Shown piece after piece: positions 1,766 through 64,000 of a DNA stretch of 64,000 nt (position 1 is its first letter; each line of letters opens with the position of its first letter). This stretch comes from Desulfuromonadaceae bacterium (GTDB lineage Bacteria > Desulfobacterota > Desulfuromonadia > Desulfuromonadales > Desulfuromonadaceae). The notes under the pieces were generated by a model. It did no database searches and was not told where the DNA came from. It saw only the letters and a program-made list of their open reading frames with translations. Location of the stretch: contig JAVERW010000004.1 in assembly GCA_034006915.1 (NCBI GenBank), positions 8,458 to 72,457 on the forward strand, read 5' to 3'. Position numbers and translations under genes: made by a program.

Positions 1766-1777
1766 ACAAAGACTACC

Positions 1778-3419: not shown

Positions 3420-3527
3420 TAAGCCCATCAGCGCTGACAACCAAAAGCCACGCTCCTTAGTCGCTCTGCTTTGGGCTGCGGGTTATTGGTAGCGTGAGGT
3501 GGTACTGAGAGGTCGTACAATCCTGGC

Positions 3528-9033: not shown

Positions 9034-9117
9034 TATCAATGCGTTGATCAAGAATATACACAGTCAATATTAAATATCAACGCACAAAAACAAATATAGA
9101 CGGGAGGGAAGGCGGTT
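9034..9117. promoter_or_regulatory. candidate oriT / divergent promoter region
   Basis: AT-rich gap between the divergent relaxase operon and the + strand array. 9-bp inverted repeat TGCGTTGAT (9040-9048) / ATCAACGCA (9076-9084). TTGACA at 9027-9032 with AAGAAT 17 nt downstream. No nic site recognised. Confidence 0.3.
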
Positions 9118-9495
9118 TTGAGAATAGACCAGGAGAGAATCGAAAGGACACTGAAGATGAGCAGAAAAAAGAGCATCGAGAGCAGAATCAAAAACAAGAC
9201 ACTCAAAGATATCCGCAACGAATTGAGATTTTTTGAAAAAGGAGTAATCGCAGATGCCACCCGCGCAGCAGGTGAGATAGGGGTGGCGATATTTAGGGAA
9301 GATCCAGAGCATCAGATCTTCCAGGATTATCCGCAATTCAGAGAAAAGATTTCAGAATTATCCGATGTGCTGGGGCGGATTAACGTCAAAATTAGCAAAC
9401 GAGAAAATGGCACTGATACGGGACAAAAAAACAATCCGGTAAGCACCAAAAAGGAAAATGACTTTGTGCGCGATATCCGGGACGAAGAACTTTAA
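9118..9495 (+). CDS. hypothetical basic protein, first gene of the + strand array (StbA-position)
   Basis: TTG start at 9118, or ATG 9157 (MSRKKSIESRIKNK...). Lys/Arg-rich N-terminus. No motif recognised. Confidence 0.35.
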   Translation: MRIDQERIERTLKMSRKKSIESRIKNKTLKDIRNELRFFEKGVIADATRAAGEIGVAIFREDPEHQIFQDYPQFREKISELSDVLGRINVKISKRENGTDTGQKNNPVSTKKENDFVRDIRDEEL

Positions 9496-9517: not shown

Positions 9518-10180
9518 ATGCTCACAATGATACACGGAGATAAGGGCGGCGTAGGCAAGTCCATGGTGGCGCAGGTACTGCTGGATTATCGGATCGCAAG
9601 CAGTCAGGAACAAAGCACAATTCTGGTGGAATCTGATACCAGAAATCCGGACGTTTCCAGGCTGTTTGGCAAATATATCCAGGTTGAGGAAATCAACCTA
9701 AAAAGCCACGACGGGTGGATGGAACTGGCAGATCTGCTGGAGCAGAATCGCGACAAAAATGTGGTTGTTTCCCTTCCGGCCGGGGTTGGCAATCACATAG
9801 AAACCGAAGGGCAGTATCTGTCTGATTTGCTCGCAGATCTGGGGCATGAATTGAAGGTGTACTGGCCGATCAACCGTAACAAGGATTCAATAATTCTCCT
9901 GAAAGAATTTATGGAATCGCCCCTGGGCCAGAGAGCAGATCTTACTGTCGTATTGAACGGATTCTTCGGTAAGCAGGAGCAGTTTCAGCTCTGGAACAAA
10001 AGCAATACCCGCCAGCAACTTCTGGAACAATATAACGGCAGGGAGGTGTTTCTCCCCGAATTGCATCACCGGGTCGTGGATGTGATCCGCGAGCCGTATA
10101 CCATGTGCAAGGGCTTGCAATATTCCGTGCGCGTCGAGCTGGAGCGCTGGCTACGCAGGGCTTATCAGATTGTGTATTGA
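9518..10180 (+). CDS. ParA/MinD-like P-loop ATPase (plasmid StbB/TraL-like position)
   Basis: Start at ATG 9518 after GGAG. Deviant Walker A in MIHGDKGGVGKSMVAQ. Confidence 0.65.
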   Translation: MLTMIHGDKGGVGKSMVAQVLLDYRIASSQEQSTILVESDTRNPDVSRLFGKYIQVEEINLKSHDGWMELADLLEQNRDKNVVVSLPAGVGNHIETEGQYLSDLLADLGHELKVYWPINRNKDSIILLKEFMESPLGQRADLTVVLNGFFGKQEQFQLWNKSNTRQQLLEQYNGREVFLPELHHRVVDVIREPYTMCKGLQYSVRVELERWLRRAYQIVY

Positions 10181-10213
10181 GGAATGAGTTTTGGCTGTGA
10201 AACAGGAGGATAT

Positions 10214-45616: not shown

Positions 45617-46367
45617 ATTTACTCCTTAGCCTCTAGTTTGAGATTTTGGCTGATCCGCTAGCAACAAAATACAGAGAGCTGGGTAAAATATGACAAGAAG
45701 GTGTGCCGGGCTGCTTAATAGCTTCGCGATGCGGATCTGCTAGCGTGCCTTGACGCTTTCTAAATAATCACATGTTTATATATTTCATGTCAATCAGTTT
45801 GTTAGATGTCACACAGGAGGGACAGCATTGAATGCCCCGTGCGTTTGCTTGATTTTTAAGCTCATTTTATTTATTCGTTGCAATATGTGTGAAAGTGGAG
45901 TGCAAGTCCCTATTTTGCAGATGTAAAGTGAACTTGCATTAGTCACCATGTTAGTGTGGCTAATCAAGCAAGCGGGATTGTTGTTGGCTTGTGTGGCGCC
46001 CTGTTGATTGTTGGTAGAATGTAATTCAAATATTGAGCGATGATTCCAAAGACTGTCTGATTTAAAGTCTCTTGCTTACATGCTCAAAAAAACAGCAATC
46101 CGCACAATCCCACTTCCTATCTACACAATTCAGTCTACTCAAGCGAGTATTCCACAGATACCAGTGGAAAACAGAATGCCCTCAAGCTATGGTCAAGCGT
46201 GAATCCTGATCGGCATTATCTTTAACATCTAAACCTGAAGACTTGTTTTTGGGCATGTCGCCTATGAATGATTCTTTGATTTTTCTTAATAAAATCTGTA
46301 TATTTACTATATTGTTTTTATTCGCTGGGTGATGCATATGAGCAGGAGGAATCTTTCCATATGCTGA

Positions 46368-46412
46368 AACCACTGTGCCAGGCAGATACCGGCCCAGTGG
46401 TTTTCTCTTTTT
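46368..46412 (+). terminator. orphan + strand intrinsic terminator 25 nt upstream of hsdM1
   Basis: Stem AACCACTG (46368-46375) / CAGTGGTT (46395-46402), then TTCTCTTTTT. No annotated + strand gene lies upstream within 1.5 kb. Confidence 0.45.
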
Positions 46413-46436
46413 AGACTATGTGATTGGTCAGAATAA

Positions 46437-47918
46437 ATGTTGTCAAAGAAATTGAATTTATCCCAGTTAGAGCAATACCTTTCAAAAGCAGCCTGGATTC
46501 TAAAGGGTCCAGTCGATGCATCAGATTTCAAGGTCTACATATTCCCGCTTTTGTTCTTCAAGCGAATCTCTGATGTTTACGACGAAGAATATCGCATAGC
46601 GCTAGAAGAGTCCGGCGGCGATGTCGAGTATGCCTCTCTTCCGGAGATGCACCGCTTCGAGATCCCGGAAGGCTGTCACTGGAATGATGTGCGAGAGAAA
46701 ACCGTCAACGTCGGCCAAGGGATTGAAGCTGCTCTGCGTGGCATTGAGCAAGCCAATCAGGAACATCTTTACGGTATTTTCGGTGATGCGCAGTGGAGCA
46801 ACAAAAACAAGCTCCCCGATCGGTTGTTGGTCGATCTGATCGAGCACTTCTCTCAATACACCCTGGGAAACGAAAATGTCGATCCCGACATGCTCGGCAA
46901 CGCATACGAATACCTCATCAAACACTTTGCTGATTTAACCAATAAAAAAGCGGGTGAATTCTATACGCCTCGGACGGTAGTGCATCTTCTCGGTCTGATT
47001 CTCGATCCGCATGAGGGAGAAACAATTTACGACCCGGCGTGCGGTACCGGTGGGATGCTGCTTGAGTGTGTCGATCACCTTAAGGACAACAAAGAAGACT
47101 ATAGGACGCTCAAACTATTTGGACAGGAGAAGAACCTGACCTCCAGCTCCATTGCCCGGATGAACATTTTCCTGCATGGCATTGAGGATTTTCAAATTGT
47201 ACGTGGAGATACCCTGCGTAATCCGGCCTTTTTTGAGGCCGACGGCTTGAAGACCTTCGATTGTGTCATTGCAAATCCACCATTCTCTCTGAAAAACTGG
47301 GGAGCCGATTACTGGGCCAATGATCCTTATGGGCGCAACATTGCCGGTGTGCCACCCAAGGGCAACGGTGATATGGCCTGGGTACAGCACATGGTTAAGT
47401 CGATGAACAGCACGGGTCGAATGGCAGTTGTGTTGCCGCACGGCGCACTGTTCCGTAAGGGTGCCGAAGGGAAGATCCGCCAAGCACTTCTGGAGATGGA
47501 CCTGCTCGAAGCAGTCATTGGACTGGGCCCCAATGTGTTTTACGGAACGCAGCTCTCAGCATGCATCATGGTCTTTAAGCAGAACAAGGAGCCGGAGAAA
47601 AAGCAGAAGGTTCTTTTTATTGATGCTACTGAGCAGATCAGGGTGGGACGGGCACAGAACTTTCTTGAGCCGGAGCATGTGCAGCAGATTTACACTTGGT
47701 ATCGCGATTATATCGATGTCGAGAATTACGTTAAAGTCGCTGGTGTAGACGAGCTGAAAGAGAACGATTACAACCTCAATATTCCTCTCTACGTTGAAAA
47801 GATTATCGAAGACAACCTGCCAACAGTCGAGGAAGCCTTGGCTGACCTGAAAGAGGCTTGGGACGAGAGCCTGAAAGCCGAAGAGAAGTTCAAGGAAGTG
47901 CTTGCGAGGTTTATGTAA
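46437..47918 (+). CDS. hsdM: type I R-M N6-adenine DNA methyltransferase subunit, copy 1
   Basis: HsdM_N region (FIFPLLFFKRISDVYDEEY), GEFYTPRTVV, DPACGTGGML, IANPPFS. Confidence 0.9.
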   Translation: MLSKKLNLSQLEQYLSKAAWILKGPVDASDFKVYIFPLLFFKRISDVYDEEYRIALEESGGDVEYASLPEMHRFEIPEGCHWNDVREKTVNVGQGIEAALRGIEQANQEHLYGIFGDAQWSNKNKLPDRLLVDLIEHFSQYTLGNENVDPDMLGNAYEYLIKHFADLTNKKAGEFYTPRTVVHLLGLILDPHEGETIYDPACGTGGMLLECVDHLKDNKEDYRTLKLFGQEKNLTSSSIARMNIFLHGIEDFQIVRGDTLRNPAFFEADGLKTFDCVIANPPFSLKNWGADYWANDPYGRNIAGVPPKGNGDMAWVQHMVKSMNSTGRMAVVLPHGALFRKGAEGKIRQALLEMDLLEAVIGLGPNVFYGTQLSACIMVFKQNKEPEKKQKVLFIDATEQIRVGRAQNFLEPEHVQQIYTWYRDYIDVENYVKVAGVDELKENDYNLNIPLYVEKIIEDNLPTVEEALADLKEAWDESLKAEEKFKEVLARFM

Positions 47919-51976: not shown

Positions 51977-54943
51977 ATGACCTTCACCGAACTCAACAGC
52001 GTAGAGCACTTCATCGTTCGCGAACTTACGGGTGTCAATCTCAACAAGGAAGGCACAGCCGAGTTAAAAGCTGGCTTCGGTTCCTCCTGGCAGTACAAGC
52101 CACCCCAAGAGCTGAAACGGGGCGTCAACGAAGTGCTCGAAGAGAGTGAAGTGCAGGCCGCGCTGATTCGTCTCAACCCGGAGATTGCCGCCAAGCCGGA
52201 ACGGGCCGATGAAGTCATCTACAAGCTCCGCGCTATTCTGATTTCGGTTAACCAAGTCGGGCTGGTCAAGGCCAACGAAGAGTTCTTCTTGTGGCTCACC
52301 GGCGAGAAGACCATGCCCTTCGGCGAGAATAACCGTCACGTCCCCATCAAGCTCATCGACTTTGAAAATCTCAGCAACAACACCTACACCGTCACCAACC
52401 AATTCCGCATCCATCACCGTGAAACCAAAATTCCTGATGTCGTTCTGTTGATCAACGGAATCCCGGTGGTGGTCGGTGAAGCCAAGACCCCGATTCGGCC
52501 TTCGGTGAGTTGGCTCGATGGTGCCCATGAAATCAACGCGATCTACGAAAATGCCGTGCCGCAACTCTTTGTGCCCAACATCCTGTCTTTCGCTACTGAA
52601 GGGAGGCAATTATATTACGGTGCTATCCGTTGTCCGCTAGAGTTCTGGTCCCCCTTGCGGAAAGAGGAAGACAATAATCAGGTTGCCAGAGCGCTGGGGC
52701 TGTCGGAAGTTGGTGCCGAGCTGAATGATCTCCTCAACCCGGCCCGATTGCTCGACATCATGCGCAACTTCTCCCTCTTTACCACCAATAAGAAGAAGCA
52801 GCGCACCAAGGTGATTCCACGCTTCCAGCAGTACGAGGGGGCCAATAAGATCGTTGCTCGGGTAAAAGAGGGACGCATCAAAAAGGGGTTGATCTGGCAC
52901 TTTCAGGGGTCAGGAAAATCGCTGCTCATGGTTTTTGCAGCGCAGAAGCTGCGTCGCGCGCCGGAGCTGAAAAGCCCGACTGTAATCGTACTGGTTGATC
53001 GCGTTGATCTCGACACCCAGATCAGTGGCACCTTCAATGCCGCCGATGTGCCAAATGTGGAAAGCACCGAGAGCATCAGCGAACTGCAAACCATGCTGGA
53101 GCGTGACACCCGTAAAATCATCATCTCAATGATTCACAAGTTCCGCGACGCCAAGCCGAACATGAATACCCGCGATAACATCATCGTCCTGGTCGATGAA
53201 GCCCACCGTACCCAGGAGGGTGATCTGGGGCGCCAGATGCGGGCTGCGCTGCCGAATGCGTTTCTGTTTGGTCTGACCGGTACGCCAGTGAACAAGGCCG
53301 ATAAGAATACCTTCTGGGCCTTTGGTTCCGAGGATGATCAGGGCGGCTATATGTCGCGCTATACCTTCCACGATTCGATCCGTGACGAGGCAACCCTGCC
53401 ACTGCACTTTGAGCCGCGCCTGGTTGATGTGCATGTCGATACGGAATCGCTCGATAAAGCGTTTGCTGAATTCAAAGATAGTGCTGCTCTTTCCGACGAA
53501 GAGGCTGATGCACTGAACAAGAAGTCAGCAAAAATGTCAGCGTTTTTGAAATCACCTGAGCGTGTTGAGAAGATTGTTGAGGACATTGCTACTCACTTTA
53601 AGGAGAAGGTTGCCCCGCACGGATTCAAGGCGATGATTGTCACGCCGGATCGTCATGCCTGTGTGCAATACAAGGAAGAGCTGGATAAGCATTTTCCGGA
53701 AGAGGCGAGCAAGGTTGTCATTTCGACTTCAGCTAACGATGATCTCGAATTCAAGCAAAAGTGGAGCGTTGATAAAAGCCAACAGGAGAAAGTGGTCGAT
53801 GAGTTCAACGATGCGAAGTCGGATCTGAAGTTCATCATCGTCACGGCTAAACTGCTGACCGGCTTCGATGCACCTATCCTGCAGACCATGTATCTCGACA
53901 AATCACTCAAGGATCATACCCTGTTGCAGGCAATCTGTCGCACCAACCGCCTCTATCCGCAAAAGTCCTTCGGTCGGATTGTCGATTACTTCGGCATTTT
54001 CGATGACGCCGCCAAGGCCCTTGAGTTCGACGAGAAGACGATTCAGCAGGTGATCACCAACCTCTCTGAGCTGCGCGATAAGCTCCCACAGGCGATGGCC
54101 GATGTGCTGGCCCACTTCCCTGATGTTGATCGCTCTCTGGACGGATTTGAAGGGTTAGAAGCTGCCCAGAACGCCATTAATACCAACGATAAGAAAGATG
54201 CCTTCGCTCGTGACTTCAAGTATCTCGCCAAGCTCTGGGAATCACTGTCACCAGACAATATCCTGAATATTTATAATCAGGACTATAAGTGGTTGGCGCA
54301 GGTCTATGAGTCGGTTAAACCCGCATCCGATAACATTGGCAAGCTGCTGTGGATGACTCTCGGGGCGCAGACGACACAACTGATCCACGAGAATATCCAT
54401 GTCGGAGATGTGCATACGCTTGATGAGTTTGTGTTGGATGCGGATGTGGTCGAGGAGATCTTCAATAACCCTGACCCGAAGAAAGTCAAGCAGCTCGAAA
54501 AGGCACTGATCAAACGATTCAAAAAACGCGCAGGAAATCCGAAGTTTAAATCCCTGAGTGAACGGTTGGAGGAGTTACGTGACAGAGCCGAGAAGGGTTT
54601 GATCTCCTCAATCGAGTTCGTCAAGGAACTCTGCATGCTGGCCAAGGAGACAGTGCAGGCTGAGAAGGAGTTTGAGGAAGAGATTCAGGAAAAGTCTCCA
54701 CAGGCAGCGCTTACCGAACTTTTTCTGGAGCTTAAAACCGATCAGACCCCTGCGGTTGTAGAGCGGATTGTTGCGGACATCGATTCGATTGTTCGGATCG
54801 TGCGTTTCCCCGGATGGCAGCAATCGACCCAGGGTGAGCGCGAAGTGCAGAAATCGCTGAGGAAGGCATTATTGAAGTACCAGTTGCATAAAGACCAGGT
54901 ACTGTTTGATCGGGCTTATGCGTATATAAAAGAATATTACTGA
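51977..54943 (+). CDS. hsdR: type I restriction enzyme R subunit
   Basis: 988 aa. N-terminal PD-(D/E)xK (DVVLLINGIPVVVGEAKTP), helicase motif I FQGSGKS and DEAH box VLVDEAHRTQ. Confidence 0.92.
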   Translation: MTFTELNSVEHFIVRELTGVNLNKEGTAELKAGFGSSWQYKPPQELKRGVNEVLEESEVQAALIRLNPEIAAKPERADEVIYKLRAILISVNQVGLVKANEEFFLWLTGEKTMPFGENNRHVPIKLIDFENLSNNTYTVTNQFRIHHRETKIPDVVLLINGIPVVVGEAKTPIRPSVSWLDGAHEINAIYENAVPQLFVPNILSFATEGRQLYYGAIRCPLEFWSPLRKEEDNNQVARALGLSEVGAELNDLLNPARLLDIMRNFSLFTTNKKKQRTKVIPRFQQYEGANKIVARVKEGRIKKGLIWHFQGSGKSLLMVFAAQKLRRAPELKSPTVIVLVDRVDLDTQISGTFNAADVPNVESTESISELQTMLERDTRKIIISMIHKFRDAKPNMNTRDNIIVLVDEAHRTQEGDLGRQMRAALPNAFLFGLTGTPVNKADKNTFWAFGSEDDQGGYMSRYTFHDSIRDEATLPLHFEPRLVDVHVDTESLDKAFAEFKDSAALSDEEADALNKKSAKMSAFLKSPERVEKIVEDIATHFKEKVAPHGFKAMIVTPDRHACVQYKEELDKHFPEEASKVVISTSANDDLEFKQKWSVDKSQQEKVVDEFNDAKSDLKFIIVTAKLLTGFDAPILQTMYLDKSLKDHTLLQAICRTNRLYPQKSFGRIVDYFGIFDDAAKALEFDEKTIQQVITNLSELRDKLPQAMADVLAHFPDVDRSLDGFEGLEAAQNAINTNDKKDAFARDFKYLAKLWESLSPDNILNIYNQDYKWLAQVYESVKPASDNIGKLLWMTLGAQTTQLIHENIHVGDVHTLDEFVLDADVVEEIFNNPDPKKVKQLEKALIKRFKKRAGNPKFKSLSERLEELRDRAEKGLISSIEFVKELCMLAKETVQAEKEFEEEIQEKSPQAALTELFLELKTDQTPAVVERIVADIDSIVRIVRFPGWQQSTQGEREVQKSLRKALLKYQLHKDQVLFDRAYAYIKEYY

Positions 54944-54964
54944 TTCACTTATAAGGGGTACGAG

Positions 54965-56434
54965 TTGGGAAAATACGGTCTTAGTAAATCATTGATCCTA
55001 AAGGGCATGCAATGCCCGAAAGCGCTTTATCTCCAGAAGAACCCGCCAGACTTTGAATTTCCGCCACAGCCTGATCTTGAAGCCAGGTTCCGTGCCGGTC
55101 ATGAAGTCGGCATTCTCGCCCAGCAACTCTTCCCCGGCGGTACCGAAGTCCCCTTTGATGGGCTGTCGATTCCTGAACAGGTTGAGCAAACCCGGCAACT
55201 GATCGAATCGGGCGCCAAAGTTATATACGAAGCCTCGTTCGAGTACGATGGCATTTTCGTCAAGGTCGATATCCTGGTAAAGGACGGCGACGCCTGGCAA
55301 ATCCATGAAGTGAAAATGTCGACCTCGGTCAAGGAGGTCAACCTCAATGACGTGGCAATCCAGTTCTATGTGCTCGGTCAGTGCGGGCTGCTTATTTCGG
55401 GCGCGTACTTGGTGCATATCAATAACCAGTATGTACGGCAGGGGGAGATTGATGTGCAGCAGCTCTTTGCCAGTCAGGACGTGCTGGAAGAAGCTGTTAC
55501 GCGTCAGGCCGGTCTGCAGCAACTGATCGATGATCTGCGCGTCAGCTTGCAGGGTGACGAACCGCAGATTGATATCGGTCCGCATTGCAGCGATCCGTAC
55601 GACTGTGATTTTGCCCCATACTGCTGGCAGCATATCCCGGAGAACTCGATCTTTGATCTGCGTGGCAACGGGGTGAAGAAATGGAGCCTCTACGAGCAGG
55701 GCATTATCCGCTTCGATCAGATTCCCCTGGAGATGCTAAACAAGAACCAGCGCCACCAGGTTGAGGCTACTTTGAATCAGCAGAATTGCATTGACCCGCA
55801 GTCGGTGACAGCTTTTCTGGATACCCTCTGGTATCCGCTCTATCACCTCGATTTCGAAACCTTCAATGCTGCAATCCCCAAGTTTGACGGAACCCGCCCT
55901 TATCAGCAGGTGCCGTTCCAGTTTTCACTGCATGTTCAGCAGGAGGCCGGTGCCGAGCCGGAGCATTACGAATATCTCGCGGCGCCGGACGTTGACCCTC
56001 GGCGTGAACTGATTGAGCAGTTACTTGCTCTGATCCCTGAGGATGGTTGCGTCCTGACCTATAACCAGACGTTTGAGAAGGGGGTACTGCGAAACCTGGC
56101 GGAGTTGTTCCCCGATCTGGCTGATGCGATCAATAATCGTGTGGAGAATGTGCGTGACCTGATGGTGCCGTTCCGCAGGCGAGATGTTTACCGCTGGCAA
56201 ATGCGTGGCTCCTATTCGATCAAAGAAGTGCTTCCGGCGATGGTTCCTGAGCTTTCTTATTCAGGGATGGAGGTTGCCGACGGTATGGCGGCGATGCAGG
56301 CGTATCATGATATGTGTGCGTTGGGGCCTGGGGCGGAGCTGGAGCGATTGCGGGCGGCGATGCTGGAGTATTGTCAGTTGGATACGTTGGCTATGGTGAG
56401 GATATTGGGGGAGTTGGAGTATGTAATTAAGTAG
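54965..56434 (+). CDS. DUF2779-family protein (Cas4/RecB-like PD-(D/E)xK nuclease with Cys cluster)
   Basis: TTG start. N-terminus LSKSLILKGMQCPKALYLQK, EVKMS, Cys cluster HCSDPYDCDFAPYCW, C-terminal LEYCQLDTLAMVRI. Confidence 0.7.
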   Translation: MGKYGLSKSLILKGMQCPKALYLQKNPPDFEFPPQPDLEARFRAGHEVGILAQQLFPGGTEVPFDGLSIPEQVEQTRQLIESGAKVIYEASFEYDGIFVKVDILVKDGDAWQIHEVKMSTSVKEVNLNDVAIQFYVLGQCGLLISGAYLVHINNQYVRQGEIDVQQLFASQDVLEEAVTRQAGLQQLIDDLRVSLQGDEPQIDIGPHCSDPYDCDFAPYCWQHIPENSIFDLRGNGVKKWSLYEQGIIRFDQIPLEMLNKNQRHQVEATLNQQNCIDPQSVTAFLDTLWYPLYHLDFETFNAAIPKFDGTRPYQQVPFQFSLHVQQEAGAEPEHYEYLAAPDVDPRRELIEQLLALIPEDGCVLTYNQTFEKGVLRNLAELFPDLADAINNRVENVRDLMVPFRRRDVYRWQMRGSYSIKEVLPAMVPELSYSGMEVADGMAAMQAYHDMCALGPGAELERLRAAMLEYCQLDTLAMVRILGELEYVIK

Positions 56435-56498
56435 GGTGTCACCCGAATTCAAGTAGGGCGGCCCCGAATACCAAGATTATAGGTTGACGGAGGAAGTT

Positions 56499-58016
56499 AT
56501 GAGAATCGAAGAAGCTGTTGAATGTATGTCAAAGATCAACCTTCACCGTATCCTTGACAGCTATACCAAGGACACCCTCAAGCCAGATGAAGAGACCTCT
56601 CGCAGACGTATCATGTCCGACCGCGATCTCCTTCAAAACGCTGAAAACATTTCAAAAAGAATGCAGTTCTCTGGTGTTTCTTTTGACACAAAAGCGTTGG
56701 CCTTTTTTCTGGTCGAGACGCTTTTGGGTGCTGACCGATGCCAGCTTGATGAGCAAACAATTATTTCAAGCATTACCGACTATGAGAAAAAAATTATAGA
56801 TGAAGCCTCTCATCCCGATATTTTCAAATACAAAAACACTGATGCGGTGAATATCTACAAAACCGTGCTGGAAGTTGCGCTTGAAGATGATGTTATCAGT
56901 GACGATGAGAAACGTCTTCTTGGTAAGCTGAGAGCACATGTAGGCTTGTCACTTAACGACCACCACTTGATCCAAGCTAGTCTGAAAAAATTCCCTAAAT
57001 CCGGAAACGAAATCCATACAGAAAAAGAAATTAAAAATGGATTGACCGATTTACAGAGGCGTGGTGTCGTTTTTTACTGCAACCAATGTAACGGTGGCCC
57101 CGTCTATATGATTCCTGAAGAAATTGTTCCTGGGGTGAAACTAGTCGTTGGGCTTGAGTTATCCAAAGACGCTTATGCTCTTCTACTGGATAAGCTGACA
57201 GTAAATGCCCTTTGGCAAATTCTCGAAACAAATGGTTTGCCGACTTCCGGAAAAAAGGGCGAAAGAATTCAGAGGGTTCAAGGAGCAGACATCCAGCCGA
57301 GTTGTGCTTTAAACGCACTATCAAATGATGAGTTGTACGAACTGTGCAAGAAGCTTCCTGGTGTCAATGTCAGTGGTAGTAAGGCAACGCGAATCAGCAA
57401 TATCATTAGCCACTTTGACAAGCTACGGGTTGTGGCGTGTGACGAAACGTCTGACAGTCGAGAAAAATACTACGAGTATTATGTTGAACTTGCCACCCGT
57501 GACAGGGAAAACTTGCTCACCAATAAGGTGATCAGCAAAGACAAGGATATGGACTTAGCTTTTGAAGAGGGCACACGGTACCTTTTTGAGAAGAAGTTAG
57601 GTCTGATCCTTGAGCCGATGACAGGCAGCGAACATGCAGATGGAGTTTTGAAGCTCCCTAAATCGAAAGAATTGTTCATGTGGGATACAAAGAGCAAAGA
57701 GACCATGTATGAGTTCCCAAATGATCACTTCAATCAATTCAGGCGATATATCTTGAATTCTACTGAACGAGTAAATTGTTTCATGGTGATTGCTCCGAAA
57801 ATTTCGGACAAGGCCGATGAAAATGCGTACCGGCTTAAAACGCAATCTAGCTCGGATACCGATGTGTCTCTCATAAGTGCTGATGATCTCAAGTGGGTTG
57901 CTGGAAATTGGAGTTCATATTCGACTAACGGCAAGTTTTCTCTCGATGTTTTCAATTTTACGGGGGTGCTTGATCGTGGGAGTTTGAAGAAGAGGATGAA
58001 GATCTTTTTGAAGTAG
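56499..58016 (+). CDS. orphan multidomain nuclease: TerB-like motif, two SAP-like motifs, FokI-like PD-(D/E)xK cleavage domain
   Basis: ATG 56499 after GGAGGAAG. SAP-like LTVNALWQILETNGLPTSGKKGERIQRV and LSNDELYELCKKLPGVNVSGSKATRISNIISHF. The C-terminus YYEYYVELATRDRENLL...ADGVL...FMWDTKSK...NQFRRYILNS is colinear with the FokI cleavage domain (YIELIEIARN...PDGAI...VIVDTKAY...EMQRYVEEN). Confidence 0.6.
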   Translation: MRIEEAVECMSKINLHRILDSYTKDTLKPDEETSRRRIMSDRDLLQNAENISKRMQFSGVSFDTKALAFFLVETLLGADRCQLDEQTIISSITDYEKKIIDEASHPDIFKYKNTDAVNIYKTVLEVALEDDVISDDEKRLLGKLRAHVGLSLNDHHLIQASLKKFPKSGNEIHTEKEIKNGLTDLQRRGVVFYCNQCNGGPVYMIPEEIVPGVKLVVGLELSKDAYALLLDKLTVNALWQILETNGLPTSGKKGERIQRVQGADIQPSCALNALSNDELYELCKKLPGVNVSGSKATRISNIISHFDKLRVVACDETSDSREKYYEYYVELATRDRENLLTNKVISKDKDMDLAFEEGTRYLFEKKLGLILEPMTGSEHADGVLKLPKSKELFMWDTKSKETMYEFPNDHFNQFRRYILNSTERVNCFMVIAPKISDKADENAYRLKTQSSSDTDVSLISADDLKWVAGNWSSYSTNGKFSLDVFNFTGVLDRGSLKKRMKIFLK

Positions 58017-58130
58017 ACAGCGTCGGGGTCGGGACAGTTCCGTGGGGCAGTTTCACGGAAGCGTCCTCAAACCCGAATTACTCATAATGCTAATTAATTG
58101 ATGTGTGCCCGGGATTCCCGGACAAACGTT

Positions 58131-58327
58131 TGGAGAATGTGCGTGATCTTATGGTGCGGTTTCGCAGGTGGGATGGAGATCGCTGAAGGCATTGCAGCGA
58201 TGCAGGCTTATCATGATATGTGTGCGTTGGTGCCTGGCGCGAAGTTGGATTGATTGCGGACGGCTATGCTGGAGTATTGTCGGTTGGATTCGTTGGCAAT
58301 GGTTAGGATTTGGGGGGAGTTGATGTG
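58131..58327 (+). repeat. diverged, internally deleted duplicate of the DUF2779 gene 3-prime end
   Basis: Aligns by eye to 56142-56180 and 56266-56427, for example GCGATGCAGGCNTATCATGATATGTGTGCGTTGG and ATGCTGGAGTATTGTC. About 85 nt of the original is missing between the two blocks. Confidence 0.8.
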
Positions 58328-58421
58328 ACTATGAGAACAGCACGCGATCTTGCGATGAATAAATACATATAAATAATTGCTATTTTAAAAAGCCTGCACT
58401 CCAAAAATCGAGGGTAACTAG

Positions 58422-59807
58422 ATGAGCAAAGACATTCAGATTCTAAAATCTCGAGATGACAAAAATCCAGTGATGTTTCAATCTTCCGAAGAGGTAGATT
58501 TGTTTACCCTTGTTGAAGGTCTTGATTGTTCATGGATAAAGCAAGACCAACAGTTTGGCCCTGAAAAGTTGAGGCCACGTATTGAGCCTTGGCTGACGGC
58601 GCTATTTCAATCCGAACATCTTGCATTGCTGGCTGGATCAGGGCTTTCTCACGCAGTTCATCAAGTCGCAACAGGCTCTCTTCTTCCTGGGATGTCCAAG
58701 GTATCCTTCAGCAGCTACAACGCAGAAATAGAAACTAAAGCTAAAGAATCTGCTGAAGAATTAGGAAGAGCAGAAGGGAATATTGAGGATCAAATTCGCG
58801 TGGTAAATGAACTGTTACGTGGACTTGACATACTGGCAGCAAATAATGCTGATTTCAAGAAACCGTTTGAGGCTTTGGATGGTGAACTAAATACAATTCT
58901 TAGTGAATTTGCGACATCAATTCTCCAAGGTGAAAATGGATTAATTACTGCTAGCGAGGAAAAACGTGAAGATGCTTTTAACTACTTAGTTAGTTTCTTG
59001 ATGAGTTTTTCTAGTCGTACAGGAACACGTGACCGACTTCAAATCTTTACGACCAATTATGACCGTTTTATTGAGGCGGGCGCAGATATTGCTGGACTTC
59101 ATCTTCTTGATCGTTTTGTTGGTTCTTTGACACCAATCTTTCGATCCTCACGGTTGGATGTTGATATGCACTATAATCCACCGGGAATCCGTGGTGAACC
59201 TCGATATCTTGAAGGAGTAGCGAGATTCACAAAACTACATGGGTCCCTGGATTGGGTCAGCTCAGAATCTCAGATTAGACGGTTTGGGCTTCCCTTCGGA
59301 GCAGATAAAGTTGAACCGTACCTAGGTGCCCCTGGTCTTTACGGGGCAAAGTCGTTGGATCTAATGATTTACCCAAACGCAGCTAAAGATCGAGAAACTT
59401 CTGCATACCCATACGTTGAATTGTTCAGAGATTTTGCCGCAACTGTTTGTCGTCCCAATAGCACACTGGTCTTGTTTGGATATAGCTTCGGTGATGAGCA
59501 CATTAATCGAGTTATTGAAGATATGTTAACTATCCCTTCAACACACTTGGTTGTTTTTTCGCATAGTGATCCTCTTGGGAGAATTATGAGTACCTACAAA
59601 AAACTTGGACGCCATGCGCAGATTACTTTGATGATTGGGACTCACTTGGGTGACCTTAGAACAGTTGTAGACAACTACCTACCGAAACCGGCTATTGATC
59701 GAACGACATTTAAAATGGGCGAGTTACTAAAGGCGAGATGGGGTACAGGTCAAGCTGATACACCTGAAGCCAGCAAAGAAGTGGATGCGGGGTGGTCTGA
59801 TGAGTAA
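58422..59807 (+). CDS. SIR2-like (SIR2_2 family) protein of a Sir2-HerA defence pair
   Basis: LALLAGSGLSHAV, IFTTNYDRFIE, KLHGSLDW, LVLFGYSFGDEHINRVI. Overlaps the herA start by 8 nt. Confidence 0.75.
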   Translation: MSKDIQILKSRDDKNPVMFQSSEEVDLFTLVEGLDCSWIKQDQQFGPEKLRPRIEPWLTALFQSEHLALLAGSGLSHAVHQVATGSLLPGMSKVSFSSYNAEIETKAKESAEELGRAEGNIEDQIRVVNELLRGLDILAANNADFKKPFEALDGELNTILSEFATSILQGENGLITASEEKREDAFNYLVSFLMSFSSRTGTRDRLQIFTTNYDRFIEAGADIAGLHLLDRFVGSLTPIFRSSRLDVDMHYNPPGIRGEPRYLEGVARFTKLHGSLDWVSSESQIRRFGLPFGADKVEPYLGAPGLYGAKSLDLMIYPNAAKDRETSAYPYVELFRDFAATVCRPNSTLVLFGYSFGDEHINRVIEDMLTIPSTHLVVFSHSDPLGRIMSTYKKLGRHAQITLMIGTHLGDLRTVVDNYLPKPAIDRTTFKMGELLKARWGTGQADTPEASKEVDAGWSDE

Positions 59808-62049
59808 AACCCTCTTCGAACATGCTGGAACATTGCGTATTGGTTCTGTGGACTTTGTATCACCAGATGAAATCAAAGTTTTACTTGATATTGAGGCCCC
59901 TGACTCAGTCGCACTAAACACTGGTGGGCCCATGCCCTTCCCAAGGGTAAATAGTTACGTTTTGATCCCAGTTGATGATGGCTACCTTGTTGGCCAAATC
60001 GAATGGCTCACCGTGGAACGATCTTCTTTCCCTAAACGTCGTGGCATGCAAGATTTTGGAGTTATAGATATGCCATATCCACTACGGCGTATGAGCCTGA
60101 ATCCACTTGGAACACTCAGGAAGAGATCGAACAGGACCGAAAAATATGTATTTCGTCGTGGTGCAGATGCGTTTCCGTCTATTGGTTCAGGAGTCCTGCT
60201 TCCAACAGATACACAGCTGCGTTCTATAGTCGAATCCGGTGATAGACGTAGAGTTAAGCTTGGGACAAGCCCTTTAGCGGGGCACGCTGAAGTTTGTGTG
60301 GACCCGGATCGTATTTTCGGTCGGCATCTTGCGGTGCTTGGGAATACTGGAAGCGGTAAATCATGTACAGTTTCGGGTTTGATCCATTGGTCGCTAGAAC
60401 AAGCACAAGCGTTCAGTGGGAAAACACCCAATGCACGTTTTATAGTCCTAGACCCCAATGGAGAATACGCGAATGCTTTTGGTGATACTGCTAGAATCTT
60501 TCAAGTTAACTCGGAGACGAATCCACTCAAAGTTCCGTTATGGTTTTGGAATAGTGCTGAGTGGTGCGCTTTTACACATGCAAGCGCTAGAGCTCAAGTA
60601 CCTCTGATTAAGCGGGCTCTTCGTTCGATGCGAAACGAAGAATTTGAAGTCAGTGACAATATTGATATTGCAGCTAAACGGTTTCTGGGGATCATTCTTC
60701 AATCCATTATCTCTAGTAAAAATTCTGGAGAGCCATTCTATAAGGAGTTTCCTGATGCCAAAAACTTCATGGACCGCTTGTCTCTTTGGAGTACAAGCGT
60801 TGGTGAATACGATGAAATAATAGATTTTGATTTAAGCGAATTACGCAGAACACTCGATGAGTCGGTTGCTGCGCACAAAGTCAAGCAGCCTAATGGTTGG
60901 ATTAATTATTCAGTCTTTTTGGCTAGTGAAGTTGACGCGTTGATCGATTGTCTACGAACCACCTACGAGGGCCTCGGAGGAAGTCCCAACGATTTATTGC
61001 CTAAAAATGAAGATGTACCAGTAAAGTTTCCTGGAAACATCTTCGTTGATTTTCTCGAAGGTCTTGCTCAAGAAACAGGCAACGAACAATATGTAGAATT
61101 TCTGCTCGCGCGTATAAGAACCATGCTGGCAGATACTAGGATGAGTTCTGTTATCAGTGATGATGAGGACATTACGCTAGAAAGTTGGTTGATGCAATAT
61201 ATTGGAGGTAGTACAGGTGAAGGTGGATGCGTTTCTGTTATAGATCTCTCCCTAGTTCCAGCAGAGATAATCCACCTAGTTACATCAGTGATTTCGAGAA
61301 TGTGCTTTGAGTCATTGCAACGTTATCGAAAGTTGAAAGCGAAAACGCTGCCCACTGTTTTGGTTATGGAGGAAGCACACACATTCATCAAAAAGTATCG
61401 TGAAAATTCAGAAGATCAAAACGTTTCAGCTATCTGCTGCCAAGTCTTTGAGAAGATAGCCCGTGAGGGCCGTAAATTTGGACTTGGGCTAGTTCTCTCA
61501 TCTCAACGACCTTCCGAGTTGTCACCTACTGTACTCTCTCAGTGCAATACGTTCCTCTTGCATAGAATTAGCAACGATAGAGACCAAGAATTAGTCCACA
61601 AGTTGGTTCCCGACAATCTCAGAGGTCTTCTCAGAGAGCTTCCATCTTTGCCTTCACAAAATGCTATTCTGCTAGGTTGGGCTTCCGAACTACCGGTTCT
61701 GGTAAGAATGAATGATTTGCCGAAATCTCATCAGCCTCATTCGGCAGATCCAGACTATTGGGATGTCTGGGTAGGTCAGGACGAAGATGGCAGTATGGTC
61801 AAACGAGATGTTAATTGGAAGGAAATATCTTCTGAATGGCAGAATAAAATGCTTACTGAAGAGCAATGTATTCACTGTGAAGATTTCCTTACAGAGCAAG
61901 AAAGCGAGTTTTGCAATACCGGTGGTGTAGAGTGTTGTGATTGTATTTGCACTAAGTGTTTAAAGGCTTATGTGAATTGCTCGGGTTGCGGATGCAAAAC
62001 TCAAAATGAAGACATTTGTGATGTTTGCAGAGATCATATAGAAGATTAA
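59800..62049 (+). CDS. herA: HerA/DUF87-type ATPase of a Sir2-HerA pair, with C-terminal Cys-rich extension
   Basis: ATG 59800. N-terminal barrel-like GTLRIGSVDFVSPDEIKVLLD, Walker A LAVLGNTGSGKSCTVSGL, Walker B VLVMEEAHTF. The last 60 aa contain 13 Cys. Confidence 0.8.
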   Translation: MSKTLFEHAGTLRIGSVDFVSPDEIKVLLDIEAPDSVALNTGGPMPFPRVNSYVLIPVDDGYLVGQIEWLTVERSSFPKRRGMQDFGVIDMPYPLRRMSLNPLGTLRKRSNRTEKYVFRRGADAFPSIGSGVLLPTDTQLRSIVESGDRRRVKLGTSPLAGHAEVCVDPDRIFGRHLAVLGNTGSGKSCTVSGLIHWSLEQAQAFSGKTPNARFIVLDPNGEYANAFGDTARIFQVNSETNPLKVPLWFWNSAEWCAFTHASARAQVPLIKRALRSMRNEEFEVSDNIDIAAKRFLGIILQSIISSKNSGEPFYKEFPDAKNFMDRLSLWSTSVGEYDEIIDFDLSELRRTLDESVAAHKVKQPNGWINYSVFLASEVDALIDCLRTTYEGLGGSPNDLLPKNEDVPVKFPGNIFVDFLEGLAQETGNEQYVEFLLARIRTMLADTRMSSVISDDEDITLESWLMQYIGGSTGEGGCVSVIDLSLVPAEIIHLVTSVISRMCFESLQRYRKLKAKTLPTVLVMEEAHTFIKKYRENSEDQNVSAICCQVFEKIAREGRKFGLGLVLSSQRPSELSPTVLSQCNTFLLHRISNDRDQELVHKLVPDNLRGLLRELPSLPSQNAILLGWASELPVLVRMNDLPKSHQPHSADPDYWDVWVGQDEDGSMVKRDVNWKEISSEWQNKMLTEEQCIHCEDFLTEQESEFCNTGGVECCDCICTKCLKAYVNCSGCGCKTQNEDICDVCRDHIED

Positions 62050-62072: not shown

Positions 62073-63320
62073 ATGCGTATTATACATACATCTGACATCC
62101 ACCTTGGAAAAACCTATCGCAACTCTTCTGGCGAGGTGGTGCGCTACATCGATTTTTTTGCATGTCTTTCCGGTATTGTCGATGATGCAATTCAGGGGAA
62201 AGTCAAAGCAGTCCTGATCGGCGGTGATCTGTTCCACGTCGGTCAGATTCTGCCGAAAACCTTCGCTAGAACGATTGAAACCCTACAACCCCTTAAAGAC
62301 GCAAACATCCCCTGCATTGCCATTGAGGGCAACCACGACTGGATTCATCGTCGTGACAACATCTCGTGGATGGAAGCGCTATCTCAGATGGGTTACATCA
62401 AGCTGTTGCGCCCCTCTCGAACTGAAGACGGCGGCTACCGCTTCGATCCCTTCGACGAAGAGACCGGTATGGGTGGCCATGTCGAAATCGATGGCGTCAA
62501 TATCTATGGCCTTGGCTATATCGGTGCCCAGGCTGGCAGTCATGTCGAACGCATCTGTGAAGCGGTCACCACGGAGAACAACCTGCTGCTCTTCCACGTT
62601 GGTATTTGGAGTTACTCGCCGGTCGAGATCGGCAACATGAAGCTCGAAGAGGCGCATCCATTGGCCGATAAATTCGGCTATGTCGCCCTCGGTCACGGTC
62701 ACAAACCCTACGTCATCGAATCCCCGGAGAAAAAACCCTACGCCTTTAATCCCGGTTCCCCGGAACGGGTCAACTTCGGTGAAGAGAAGTACGACAAGGG
62801 CTACTACCTCGTCACCTATGAAAATGGTGAATTCAGCCCGGAATTCAGGAATACTTCACCGCGTCCGATGTTTGTAGAAACGATTGATCTGAGTGGTGCC
62901 GAAAATGCCGATCAGGCCCTCAACATGTTTCGTGAGCAAGTTGTTGCCAAGGTTGAAAGCTCGAGTGATGAGCGTCAACCACTGCTGGAACTGAAGCTAG
63001 TAGGTCGCGTTGGCTTCCATCCTTTTGAGCTGGGTCGTGAACGCCTGAAGGCTGTTCTTGAGGATCTGCTCAATCCTCTGCATGTCGAGATCAAAAACCA
63101 TCTCTCACTGGTCAGCAGCACCGACGAAGGGGATGGGGTCAAGAAAAGCCTGGAGGAGATCGAGCAGGAGGTCCTGCGTGACCTGATCAAAACCGGCAGC
63201 GACTACCAGGGACGTGAAGTTGAATTGATCCGCCTCTCCATCACACTGAAGAATGCCGTACAAAAGGGTGATGTCGATGGAGATGAACTGCTTGACCTTC
63301 TGAACGCGGAGGGGAATTGA
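62073..63320 (+). CDS. sbcD: SbcD/Mre11-family nuclease
   Basis: MRIIHTSDIHLGK, GGDLFH, IEGNHD, GHGH metallophosphoesterase motifs. Starts 23 nt after the herA stop. Confidence 0.8.
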   Translation: MRIIHTSDIHLGKTYRNSSGEVVRYIDFFACLSGIVDDAIQGKVKAVLIGGDLFHVGQILPKTFARTIETLQPLKDANIPCIAIEGNHDWIHRRDNISWMEALSQMGYIKLLRPSRTEDGGYRFDPFDEETGMGGHVEIDGVNIYGLGYIGAQAGSHVERICEAVTTENNLLLFHVGIWSYSPVEIGNMKLEEAHPLADKFGYVALGHGHKPYVIESPEKKPYAFNPGSPERVNFGEEKYDKGYYLVTYENGEFSPEFRNTSPRPMFVETIDLSGAENADQALNMFREQVVAKVESSSDERQPLLELKLVGRVGFHPFELGRERLKAVLEDLLNPLHVEIKNHLSLVSSTDEGDGVKKSLEEIEQEVLRDLIKTGSDYQGREVELIRLSITLKNAVQKGDVDGDELLDLLNAEGN

Positions 63321-64000
63321 TGCAGATCCTTTCCATCCATCTCAAAAACATCAAGTCACACCGAGACGCCGAACTGACGTTCTCTCCCGGCATCAACGTC
63401 CTGTCCGGTCCGAATGGTGTCGGCAAGAGCACGATTTTTGAAGCGATCGGCTACGCCATGTTTGGCGTGGATGCGCAGAACTTTGTCGGAAATGTTGAGC
63501 GTTTCATCTCAATCGGCTACAAGCGCGGCGAGATAGCTGTGGTCTTTGAAGTGGCTGACAGTGAGCGCTTTAAAGTCAGTCGCACCGTCGGTACGCCTTC
63601 CAAATGGCTTCTGGCCAAAGAGGCTGGGGGCACGTTTGAGGTTGAAGAACACAAGGACAGCAAAGAAACCGAGGCACGCCTAAAGGAGTTGCTCGGGCTG
63701 AATTCTGGTCGGTCACTCGCCGAACAGTTCGAACTCGTGATCGGTCCCTTCCAGCATGAATTCCTCGGTCCTTTTGTTATCAAGCAGCCCTCCAAACGCC
63801 GTGACAAGTTTGACGAGATTCTTGGAATCGACACCTGGCGCAAGACCTTTACCCAGACCAAGGTGCTGGCCAGCGCTATCAAGGCGAAGGTGGACTCTCT
63901 TGAAAGTGCGATTGGTCCTCTTCAGGATCAGGTGGCCGAACTACCGGCGAAGAAGGTAGAGTACAAAACAGCAAAGAAGGATCTTGATCAGGCTGAGGGC
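63320..64000 (+). CDS. sbcC: SbcC/Rad50-family ATPase, 3-prime truncated by window edge
   Basis: ATG 63320 overlaps the sbcD TGA. MQILSIHLKNIKSHRDAELTFSPGINVLSGPNGVGKSTIFEAIGYAMFG (Walker A). The frame stays open to nt 64000. Not in the ORF track because no stop is reached. Confidence 0.8.
   Translation, partial: MQILSIHLKNIKSHRDAELTFSPGINVLSGPNGVGKSTIFEAIGYAMFGVDAQNFVGNVERFISIGYKRGEIAVVFEVADSERFKVSRTVGTPSKWLLAKEAGGTFEVEEHKDSKETEARLKELLGLNSGRSLAEQFELVIGPFQHEFLGPFVIKQPSKRRDKFDEILGIDTWRKTFTQTKVLASAIKAKVDSLESAIGPLQDQVAELPAKKVEYKTAKKDLDQAEG

Follow-up and report, generated by a model that had tools for sequence, protein, structure and literature searches.

A displaced piece of a DUF2779 gene was found in the window (the whole stretch of 64,000 nt analysed in this work) at positions 58124–58333 (210 nt), where it forms a ∼86 % identical copy of codons 391–405 plus 433–487 of the intact DUF2779 gene upstream. 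The nature of its differences points to a diverged DUF2779 allele of which recombination left this piece as a scar, and speaks against a decayed tandem duplicate, and comparison with the metagenome contig L132 suggests that two scars are joined in it. The interval that contains it, between DUF2779 and the sbcDC gene pair, is a variable-cargo hotspot (features in Table 1). Displacement with one-sided homology, recombinase-free and with a history of two events, is probably the best explanation. The locus represents a clear but ordinary case of defence-island turnover and no new kind of system.

Table 1. Features of the DUF2779–sbcDC interval and its flanks in window coordinates.
Feature	Position	Strand	Remarks
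hsdR, type I R-M operon	51977–54943	+	upstream neighbour of DUF2779; Pfam HSDR_N, SWI2_SNF2, T1R_D3-like
Intact DUF2779 gene, left anchor	54965–56434	+	Pfam PF11074 (9.4e-46); Cas4 match weak
Intact-gene segment repeated in relic	56135–56423	+	56135–56179 and 56264–56423
Spacer, DUF2779 to FokI-like gene	56435–56498	+	two CCCGAATW motifs (56442–56449, 56463–56470)
FokI-like single-gene cargo, 505 aa	56499–58016	+	TerB-like, SAP and FokI cleavage domains; Pfam SAP
Spacer, FokI-like gene to relic	58017–58123	+	small hairpin and third CCCGAATT motif (58072–58079); common to window and L132
Relic block 1	58124–58169	+	DUF2779 codons ∼391–405; orthologous to start of L132 relic (older scar)
GGGATG microhomology	58170–58175	+	block 1/block 2 junction, site of the "83-nt gap"
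Relic block 2	58170–58333	+	DUF2779 codons 433–487, other allele; own divergent tail
AT-rich spacer ahead of SIR2	58334–58421	+	promoter-like site 58350–58377
SIR2–HerA defence pair, second cargo	58422–62049	+	SIR2 58422–59807; HerA 59785–62049
Mre11/Rad50-like sbcD and sbcC, right anchor	62073–64000	+	sbcD 62073–63320; sbcC 63317 onward; Pfam Metallophos, AAA_23

The copy of the DUF2779 3′ end, first proposed in a sequence-only reading of this DNA, is real, since local alignment and a repeat search agreed on it: 58124–58168 matches 56135–56179 at 39 of 45 positions, and 58170–58322 matches 56264–56416 at 131 of 153 (86 %; blastn E-value of the 153-nt block 1.7e-45), with weak similarity on to 58333. 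The particulars of that reading were recovered as well. The coding strings that it quoted (AAMQAYHDMCAL and MLEYCRLDSLAMV) are present in the relic, a single gene lies between the relic and the intact DUF2779 end, and the segment that it gave as ∼85 nt missing in between amounts to ∼83 nt (56180–56262 of the intact gene) without a counterpart in the relic. The relic has no start codon, changes frame between its blocks and carries an in-frame TGA (58251–58253); the longest exact stretch that it has in common with the intact copy is 22 nt, within a conserved coding motif. An assembly artefact was ruled out, as L123 and L125, two further assemblies, show exactly the same arrangement, and L124, which stems from a separate run, matches it at 99.5 % with no difference at all in the relic. 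The intact gene is full length by comparison with its homologues (85 % aa identity to G042, 84 % to Desulfuromusa kysingii), and its 3′ end is its best-conserved part. Its product is predicted to combine a Cas4-like PD-(D/E)XK domain with a DEDD exonuclease domain, a reading taken from PMC3985635 and PMC13621843.

The differences between the window relic and its intact neighbour fall at third codon positions in 19 of 30 cases (16 of 28 on the A1 alignment, p=0.018), as do 31 of 52 in the L132 relic (p=0.0003) and 28 of 48 in the L084 relic. A pool-state test was applied to sites that vary among six functional alleles, and differences at which the relic bears a state of those alleles were counted. 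Such states account for 18 of 35 differences in the window relic and 33 of 53 in the L132 relic, compared with 7.4±2.3 and 10.4±2.8 expected under random decay; the observed value was reached in none of 20,000 simulations for window and L132 alike. Over the relic columns, the intact end is 85.6 % identical to D. kysingii versus 82.7 % to its own relic. Private changes in the relic (6 %) are not above those of functional alleles (3–7 %), and changes seen in the window relic alone show a weak third-position bias (3/3/7). Because the differences lie at third positions and at allele-variable sites, the relic appears to have been displaced from a diverged functional allele, and the earlier proposal of a recombination that left the old DUF2779 end behind is upheld by the same two signals. 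Among genome and metagenome contigs, the search for a donor of block 2 gave no allele above 87 % identity; loci on genome contigs reach at most 85 %, and the closest sequence (87 % nt) was obtained in a metagenome scan with the relic peptide as query, which also yielded contig L132.

Contig L132 carries the DUF2779 gene (93.5 % nt identity), the FokI-like gene, the spacer and the left junction of the relic as they are found in the window. Its relic is ungapped and derives from another allele, its further cargo differs, and its sbcD is divergent (84 % nt, compared with 93.5 % for DUF2779). The comparison of the two relics is a mosaic. Block 1 has the left junction and three derived bases in common with the L132 relic, all three ahead of the GGGATG junction, and its seven differences are nearly all private to one relic. 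Block 2, with 33 of the 40 differences between the relics, is 86 % identical to the intact end of the neighbouring gene, 87 % to that of L132 and 80 % to block 2 of the L132 relic. Over both blocks, 23 of the 40 differences are functional-allele states, compared with 8.9 expected. In the functional alleles, as in the ungapped L132 relic, the segment missing from the window relic is bordered by GGGATG on either side. Since the L132 relic is ungapped, comes from another allele and is accompanied by a different cargo and a divergent sbcD, the window relic gives the impression of two scars that were joined at the GGGATG microhomology. The gap is most likely the junction of these scars, the larger block being tied to the SIR2–HerA/sbcD side. 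A plain microhomology deletion inside one relic could also have produced the gap, but would by itself leave the difference in block 2 unexplained.

The relic would thus be what remains of the 3′ end of another DUF2779 allele, once functional, which was displaced when DNA of a related lineage recombined in with homology on one side only, that is, by homology-facilitated illegitimate recombination ("C-terminal displacement"). In a first event, an incoming segment that ended shortly past a complete DUF2779 gene would have been joined illegitimately at resident codon ∼391, leaving codons 391–487 as the relic, a state that L132 would have kept ungapped; the FokI-like gene would have come with this segment or later. 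In a second event, another donor fragment, with its homology anchor in or beyond sbcDC and carrying the final 55 codons of the donor's DUF2779 together with SIR2–HerA and sbcD, would have been joined by its left end within the old relic at GGGATG, with replacement of the remaining relic and the former cargo. We infer the order and direction of these events and the route of donor DNA uptake; the direction of the second event rests on the position of the three common derived bases, and the lineage that changed could be that of the window or that of L132. The organism encodes ComEC and DprA, both near-universal in bacteria. The junction data comprise breakpoints from codon 348 to 434 and GGGATG at the internal junction, from which the junctions can be reconstructed only approximately.

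C-terminal or sequential displacement has been described for Rhs, CDI and T6SS effector–immunity loci (Jackson et al. 2009; Kirchberger et al. 2017, PMC5361080). These resemble the present locus, as it is interpreted here, in having a conserved upstream anchor, an incoming module homologous on one side only, an old 3′ end pushed downstream as an orphan fragment, successive events that stack scars, and no recombinase, homology-facilitated illegitimate recombination being the proposed mechanism. Both the 3′ fragment retained downstream and the different alleles that characterise displacement were found here. In contrast to those loci, the anchor is a stand-alone nuclease gene with a functionally invariant 3′ end, no immunity gene is linked to the orphan fragment to account for its persistence, whole defence or metabolic genes take the place of toxin tips as cargo, and the site is closed on its far side by a second conserved anchor (sbcDC).

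At least eight different contents of the interval were counted among 18 loci. Near-empty sites, with DUF2779 followed by sbcD, are present in L043, G013 and G016 (gaps of 58–180 nt), and a gap of 490 nt separates the two genes in G019. A different SIR2–HerA type occupies the interval in five loci (L024, L041, L051, L068, L071) and other cargos in seven (L042, L045, L070, L072, L076, L036, L132). Cargo kinds in the Desulfuromonadales-type loci are the FokI-like nuclease, two SIR2–HerA types, Shedu, AAA_13, Fic, toxin–antitoxin pairs and metabolic genes. With empty sites and at least eight other cargos before the next conserved genes, DUF2779 is a flanking anchor of a cargo hotspot, as had been suspected. 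The empty sites that had been envisaged were also found, although they join DUF2779 to sbcD instead of sir2-herA: the far anchor is the Mre11/Rad50-like sbcDC pair, and SIR2–HerA is itself cargo. The sbcDC genes are kept downstream of DUF2779 in 17 other loci (69–90 % aa identity); among NCBIfam models, those of Mre11 and Rad50 match them best, always below cut-off, and sbcC measures 812 aa in L123. Five contigs besides the window carry relics of the DUF2779 3′ end with differing breakpoints, the relics starting at codon ∼348–434 in L057, L084, L113 and L134. A displaced 3′ fragment downstream of intact DUF2779 and cargo is present in the window, L132, L057, L084 and L134. Relics of the 5′ end occur in L042 and L073; one IS200-like gene was noted in L042.

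Hotspots bounded by conserved genes are known as the core defence hotspots of Pseudomonas aeruginosa, the pangenome integration hotspots of E. coli and the minimal mobile elements of Neisseria. In these, as here, a given pair of genes flanks, in many genomes, an interval that is empty or filled with different defence systems, and exchange can be explained by homologous recombination in the flanks; the same two flanks with both empty and differently filled states were observed in our loci. In contrast to those hotspots, the flanks are patchily distributed accessory genes within a species-specific island, some cargos are metabolic, and partial copies of a flank document one-sided events. DUF2779 with Mre11/Rad50-like sbcDC is an anchor pair not described before. 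With this pair as a guide, Desulfuromonadales and related metagenomes can be searched for cargo; the candidates for new defence genes include the FokI/SAP nuclease as well as ORFs without annotation.

The nuclease gene had been regarded as an orphan; it belongs to a widespread family, mobile as a single gene, of 505-aa proteins with TerB, SAP and FokI cleavage domains. Its homologues carry PF09254 (FokI_cleav_dom), PF02037 and PF05099 and occur in unrelated contexts (L119, L120, L121); homology to the nearest of these (L119) begins at 56485, the ribosome-binding site. The motif CCCGAATW has seven matches in the window, three of which lie in the two spacers around the gene. In L132 the gene is 99 % identical at the aa level and 98 % at the nt level. 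As its third-position divergence from L132 is 5 %, compared with 14 % for DUF2779, the gene may be a later addition, slotted in after the scar had formed. Of the suggestion that the nuclease was gained by recombination at the DUF2779 end, the recombination scar is retained; the arrival of the FokI-like gene may or may not have produced it.

A different role for this gene, in which it inserted itself with duplication of ∼290 bp of target and the copies diverged later, is unlikely. [quoted passage not shown] 2000; Furuta et al. 2010, PMC2853133), and the configuration defined there recurs here: a lone restriction-type nuclease gene without a mobility gene between direct repeats whose length far exceeds that of transposon target duplications, with one copy only of the repeated sequence at empty sites, in genomes without the insert. 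The repeats exceed 30 bp and the insert is shorter than 20 kb (45 nt and 153 nt around the 1.5-kb FokI-like gene), and a true near-identical case was found in L073 (175 nt at 98.9 % around a HigB/HTH-M78 cassette). However, the window repeats are 86 % identical instead of nearly so and differ at sites where functional alleles differ, from which we take them to be two alleles, not one duplicated target. The intact 3′ end is no nearer to the relic than to orthologues of other genera, the larger block goes with the neighbouring SIR2–HerA/sbcD segment and not with the FokI-like gene, homology of the latter stops at its ribosome-binding site, well inside the spacer, and there is no cognate methyltransferase.

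The SIR2–HerA pair was recognised by PADLOC (SIR2 1.3e-157, HerA 1.2e-255). A search of 233 genomes of the order gave no close homologue, and identity to the SIR2–HerA pairs that follow DUF2779 in relatives is only 24–34 % aa. Homologues of the window type (80 % aa) stand in other contexts, mostly within type I R-M operons; the close ones follow hsdS or a ResIII nuclease, and none has DUF2779 upstream. The HerA tail (61780–62049) was considered as a relic of another HerA, gave no match and is a Cys-rich extension. That cassettes travel with a piece of the anchor gene, DUF2779 3′ fragments serving as portable homology arms, is decidedly unlikely. If true, this would be a recombinase-free, integron-like exchange in which each scar is a landing pad for the next swap, and capture at this locus might even be favoured by the end-processing nucleases that flank it (Cas4-like/DEDD DUF2779 and the Mre11/Rad50-like pair).

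An in-situ tandem duplication of the DUF2779 3′ end (partial, or full and mostly lost), followed by neutral decay while cargo accumulated between the copies, is very improbable. The neighbour is the nearest sequence to the relic by a small margin, the branching around the relics is an unresolved polytomy in a maximum-likelihood tree of 45 3′ ends, the AU test (p=0.63) does not reject a grouping of the window relic with the intact copies, so that phylogeny by itself would still allow an old duplication in place, and a frameshift and stop are to be expected of a decaying copy. Against this, the third-position and allele-pool differences far exceed random decay, private changes stay within the range of functional alleles, and the window and L132 relics are different alleles with one junction in common. 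Two complete tandem DUF2779 genes, the arrangement named beforehand as pointing to simple duplication, were absent from all ∼115 loci examined.

Still less credit can be given to the retention of the fragment by selection as a functional element (promoter, 5′ UTR or homology arm for the downstream operon). Fragments of like extent, from codon ∼348–434 to the end, do recur in the five further contigs, and in the window and L132 the relic stands directly upstream of the next cargo. Yet no promoter was found inside the relic, the sole promoter-like site lying downstream of it, and the relics contain frameshifts, stops and private changes. Moreover, 3′ fragments are the most easily recognised because this end of the gene is so well conserved. 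The AT-rich spacer after the relic was matched in none of the related loci.

Integrative islands whose target is a tRNA gene or the end of a protein-coding gene supply a surrogate end and are flanked by attL and attR. A site-specific integrative element with the DUF2779 3′ end as its target, carrying a surrogate for that end, would fit the geometry (intact gene end, cargo, displaced native end), but is highly improbable, as the cargo between intact gene and relic holds no integrase in six loci, the relic breakpoints range from codon 348 to 434 instead of marking a fixed point with an identical att core, no exact core longer than 22 nt is shared, and divergence of the intact gene does not change at codon 391. 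Pfam scans of the window, L057, L084, L132, L134, L042 and L073 revealed no integrase or site-specific recombinase in the cargo. A cassette with a surrogate 3′ end was likewise dropped because no divergence step is seen at codon 391 relative to L041, L042, L024 and L132.

Read as one-sided displacement, the locus would provide a base-level, dated record of a defence island rebuilt without mobile-element machinery, with two one-sided events within 210 nt. Third-position bias and pool-state excess together constitute a simple test of displaced alleles versus decayed duplicates, which can be used on other gene-end relics. On the other side of DUF2779, the last 141 nt of hsdR form a relic upstream of the gene in D. 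kysingii (L041 9028–9168; 86.5 % nt, 98 % aa), and in L132 hsdR is reduced to its last 14 nt.

The 3′ end of the DUF2779 gene is present twice in the window, as the sequence-only reading had proposed; the exact alignment of the two segments agrees with a repeat search of the window, in which the identical two repeat families were recovered, and the copy is real. Translated in the DUF2779 frame, the relic reads LENVRDLMVRFRR and, past a frame change, GMEIAEGIAAMQAYHDMCALVPGAKLD and LRTAMLEYCRLDSLAMVRIWGELM, each followed by a stop; it is a dead fragment. Since the source genome was assembled from a metagenome (169 contigs), an assembly artefact needed to be excluded. The locus is contained in SRR32610021, SRR8449815, ERZ27247324 and the sample of Ga0182239. 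Two other assemblies contain the same 11.6 kb at 100% identity, and a third, from a different run, contains it at 99.5% with zero differences within the relic; an artefact was rejected because the arrangement recurs in these three assemblies, one of them from a separate run.

Features at the DUF2779 relic (window positions)
Feature	Position	Detail	Source
hsdM, hsdS, hsdR		ahead of DUF2779	Pfam
DUF2779	54965-56434		Pfam
Segment of DUF2779 without counterpart in the relic	56180-56262	ca. 83 nt	
SAP-domain protein (FokI-like gene)	56499-58016		Pfam
CCCGAATW copies	56442-56449, 56463-56470, 58072-58079	short spacers flanking the FokI-like gene	
Relic, first part	58124-58168	39/45 matching 56135-56179	local alignment
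Relic, second part	58170-58322	131/153 matching 56264-56416; weak similarity on to 58333	local alignment
SIR2_2	58422-59807		Pfam
HerA	59785-62049		Pfam
HerA C-terminal tail	61820-62049	final ca. 60-75 residues, Cys-rich, zinc-ribbon-like	
Metallophosphoesterase (sbcD-like)	62073-63320		Pfam
AAA_23/SMC-type ATPase (sbcC-like)	63317 onward		Pfam

DUF2779 proteins are uncharacterised and combine a Cas4-like PD-(D/E)XK domain with a predicted DEDD 3′-5′ exonuclease domain (PMC3985635, PMC13621843); the weak Cas4 matches of the window protein agree with this published reading. The sbcDC pair is Mre11/Rad50-like, with scores under every NCBIfam cut-off. Strong PADLOC model matches were obtained for the SIR2-HerA pair, for which no close relative was found among 233 genomes of the order; homologues at 77-81% lie at other locations, typically within type I R-M operons. 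On two contigs from other phyla (L127 and L153), close homologues of the window SIR2-HerA type (76-81% aa) sit between hsdS and hsdR of such operons, on L153 beside a patatin and a CD-NTase-like gene. The Cys-rich tail of the window HerA has no equivalent in L126 and L127, whose HerA proteins are 81-82% identical to it and stop near residue 700.

That the relic is a displaced, diverged functional allele is well supported by these sequences, and its origin by duplication and subsequent decay is unlikely, when codon positions, allele-pool states, private changes, distances and tree are taken together. Differences between relic and neighbouring gene fall mainly at third codon positions: the counts at positions 1/2/3 were 7/4/19 for the window by local alignment, 8/4/16 (p 0.018) in the A1 alignment, 11/10/31 (p 0.0003) for the metagenome contig L132 and 10/10/28 for contig L084. 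In an allele-pool test, every relic-neighbour difference was classed against six functional alleles, and random decay of the neighbour's sequence was simulated. Sites with both states among functional alleles accounted for 18 of 35 differences in the window relic (7.4±2.3 expected) and 33 of 53 in the L132 relic (10.4±2.8 expected), counts reached in 0 of 20,000 simulations for either. This excess and the third-position bias both argue against duplication and decay, as does the intact gene end, which over the relic columns matches Desulfuromusa kysingii better (85.6%) than it does its own relic (82.7%). Private changes affect ca. 6% of relic sites, not above the 3-7% of functional alleles, with a higher non-synonymous share than in those alleles; a recently silenced allele would show this pattern. 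The weak point of the displacement case is the tree of 3′ ends, in which the relics fall into an unresolved polytomy; in favour of duplication, a relic-plus-intact clade was left unrejected by the AU test. No donor allele was found in the genome and metagenome contigs. ComEC and DprA are encoded in the genome, which says little about the route of DNA entry.

Contig L132 (7999 nt) aligns to the window from the final 14 nt of hsdR into the first part of the relic, with DUF2779, the FokI-like gene and the spacer in between; the spacer and left relic junction are the same in both. DUF2779 differs by 6.6% (69 of 97 differences at third positions) and the FokI-like gene by 2.0% (26 of 30), with a 446-nt identical tract (56478-56923) in the region of the latter. 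The L132 relic is ungapped with one frameshift; its block 2, the part from window 58170 on, is 80% identical to that of the window, the cargo past it is an AAA_13 gene, and sbcD is 84% identical. Within block 1, which comprises the initial 46 nt, three derived bases are common to both relics and the remaining differences are private to one of them. Block 2 holds 33 of the 40 differences between the relics, and 23 of the 40 are functional-allele states (8.9±2.5 expected). The shared derived bases all lie ahead of the 83-nt jump in the window relic, and GGGATG is present at each edge of the missing piece. The simplest reading is that the window scar is composite and that L132 retains the older scar (codons 391-487). 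A donor fragment comprising the DUF2779 codons from 433 on together with SIR2-HerA and sbcD would have entered the window lineage, anchored on the sbcDC side, and its left end would have been joined within the old relic at the GGGATG microhomology. Less likely is a change in the L132 lineage instead, since a crossover would then be needed precisely where block 1 ends.

The nuclease between DUF2779 and the relic had been called an orphan; it is a member of a widespread family of ca. 505 aa with a FokI cleavage domain (PF09254) and SAP, sometimes also TerB. Its close homologues are found in unrelated neighbourhoods and nucleotide homology to them starts just 14 nt ahead of the start codon, so the gene is a single-gene cassette, with a homology unit of its own from 56485 to at least 58052. 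The sequence-only reading attributed the scar to the arrival of this gene. A recombination scar is upheld; the gene itself may have come with the event behind the first scar, or later. It could have been slotted in between the intact DUF2779 end and a relic already there, because it is less diverged from L132 than DUF2779 is, its homology unit is confined and the spacers carry CCCGAATW. The three spacer copies are among seven matches to this motif in the 64-kb window, and the two upstream copies lie inside a degenerate 22-nt tandem repeat; they may be left over from the intergenic site that was originally the target or may mark a cassette boundary.

The organism belongs to the Desulfuromonadales, and D. 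kysingii is its closest named relative at the locus. Eight other species of the genus have neither DUF2779 nor this sbcD; homology to them ends at about 40.7 kb of the window, which makes the entire region from 40700 to 64000 and beyond, anchors included, a species-specific island. It also carries Fic, AbiE, a type I R-M operon with two hsdM genes, and PDC-M59. In 17 other loci, from elsewhere in the Desulfuromonadales and from a small number of Desulfobulbales and Desulfatiglandales, the same sbcDC (69-90% aa) comes after DUF2779. The anchors are directly adjacent (gap 58-180 nt) in L043, G013 and G016 and 490 nt apart in G019. Elsewhere they enclose a different SIR2-HerA, 24-34% aa to that of the window (G042, D. 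kysingii, L051, L068, L071); Shedu, Fic, an IS200-like gene and an HDOD regulator (L042); Shedu (L072); AAA_13 (L132); an aminotransferase and an alcohol dehydrogenase (L045); pyruvate and glycerate kinases (L070); or MBL-fold, SodC and Vgb-lyase-like proteins (L036, L076). Such near-empty and variously filled sites bear out the earlier proposal of DUF2779 as a hotspot anchor, with the correction that its partner in empty sites is sbcD, not sir2-herA; the interval is a general variable site rich in defence genes. In L063 and L102, DUF2779 is followed by the second SIR2-HerA type, the one that differs from that of the window, with no sbcD-like gene within ca. 7 kb past the pair, and the repeated adjacency of DUF2779 and SIR2-HerA might go beyond hotspot coincidence. 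On L033 (genome G014), the sbcD-like gene after DUF2779 is cut to its first 39 codons (8898-9014), a 5′ relic of the right anchor, and is followed by unrelated genes for a HATPase_c_2 protein and an MFS transporter.

Gene-end relics recur at other loci. Fragments of the 3′ end past an intact DUF2779, with intervening cargo, were found in L057, L084 (5.9 kb of cargo), L134 (a DUF6036/HEPN pair and two other genes) and L132, and L113 has kept the 3′ fragment alone. A 5′ fragment lies upstream of the gene in L042, around a ParE/Phd pair and an AlkA-like gene, and in L073, around a HigB/HTH-M78 pair. Relic breakpoints span about codons 348-434, and no integrase was found in the cargos of these loci. 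Relic-neighbour identity ranges from 77% (L057) to 98.9% (L073), which fits donors at differing evolutionary distances. The L073 copies form a 175-nt direct repeat (7983-8157 and 10017-10191) bracketing the HigB-like/HTH-Peptidase_M78 cassette, which looks like a recent insertion of the 'long target duplication' type at the other end of DUF2779. In D. kysingii (L041), a 141-nt relic of an hsdR 3′ end (9028-9168; 86.5% nt and 98% aa identity to window 54803-54943) lies ca. 830 nt ahead of DUF2779, where an hsdR gene itself is absent; the same type of scar therefore also occurs on the other flank of DUF2779.

The DUF2779 scar probably works like the C-terminal or sequential displacement known from Rhs, CDI and T6SS loci; the mechanism proposed there is homology-facilitated illegitimate recombination (PMC5361080). 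There is also a likeness to the 'insertion with long target duplication' described for R-M genes (PMC2853133), but near-identical repeats, one of its defining features, are lacking in the window; L073 may be a true case. The DUF2779-sbcDC site is also in line with the general view of defence hotspots as sites flanked by conserved genes. Modestly new are the pairing of DUF2779 with an Mre11/Rad50-like pair as anchors that are accessory genes themselves, anchor-end relics that recur from genome to genome, and a scar in two layers.

Two further observations concern the R-M genes. Positions 577-912 of L132 correspond to window 46260-46592 and 905-4137 to window 54930-58175; the first 52 codons of hsdM1 are fused straight to the last 14 nt of hsdR, and L132 thus lacks the 8.3 kb that extend from codon 52 of hsdM1 to the hsdR end. 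Up to 8 nt at this junction belong to both alignments, an overlap suggestive of the loss of the entire R-M block by microhomology deletion. Between the window and L124, the assembly with 99.5% identity over 11.6 kb, 50 of 58 differences are clustered in hsdR (52432-54163), which points to a recent recombination tract within the population.
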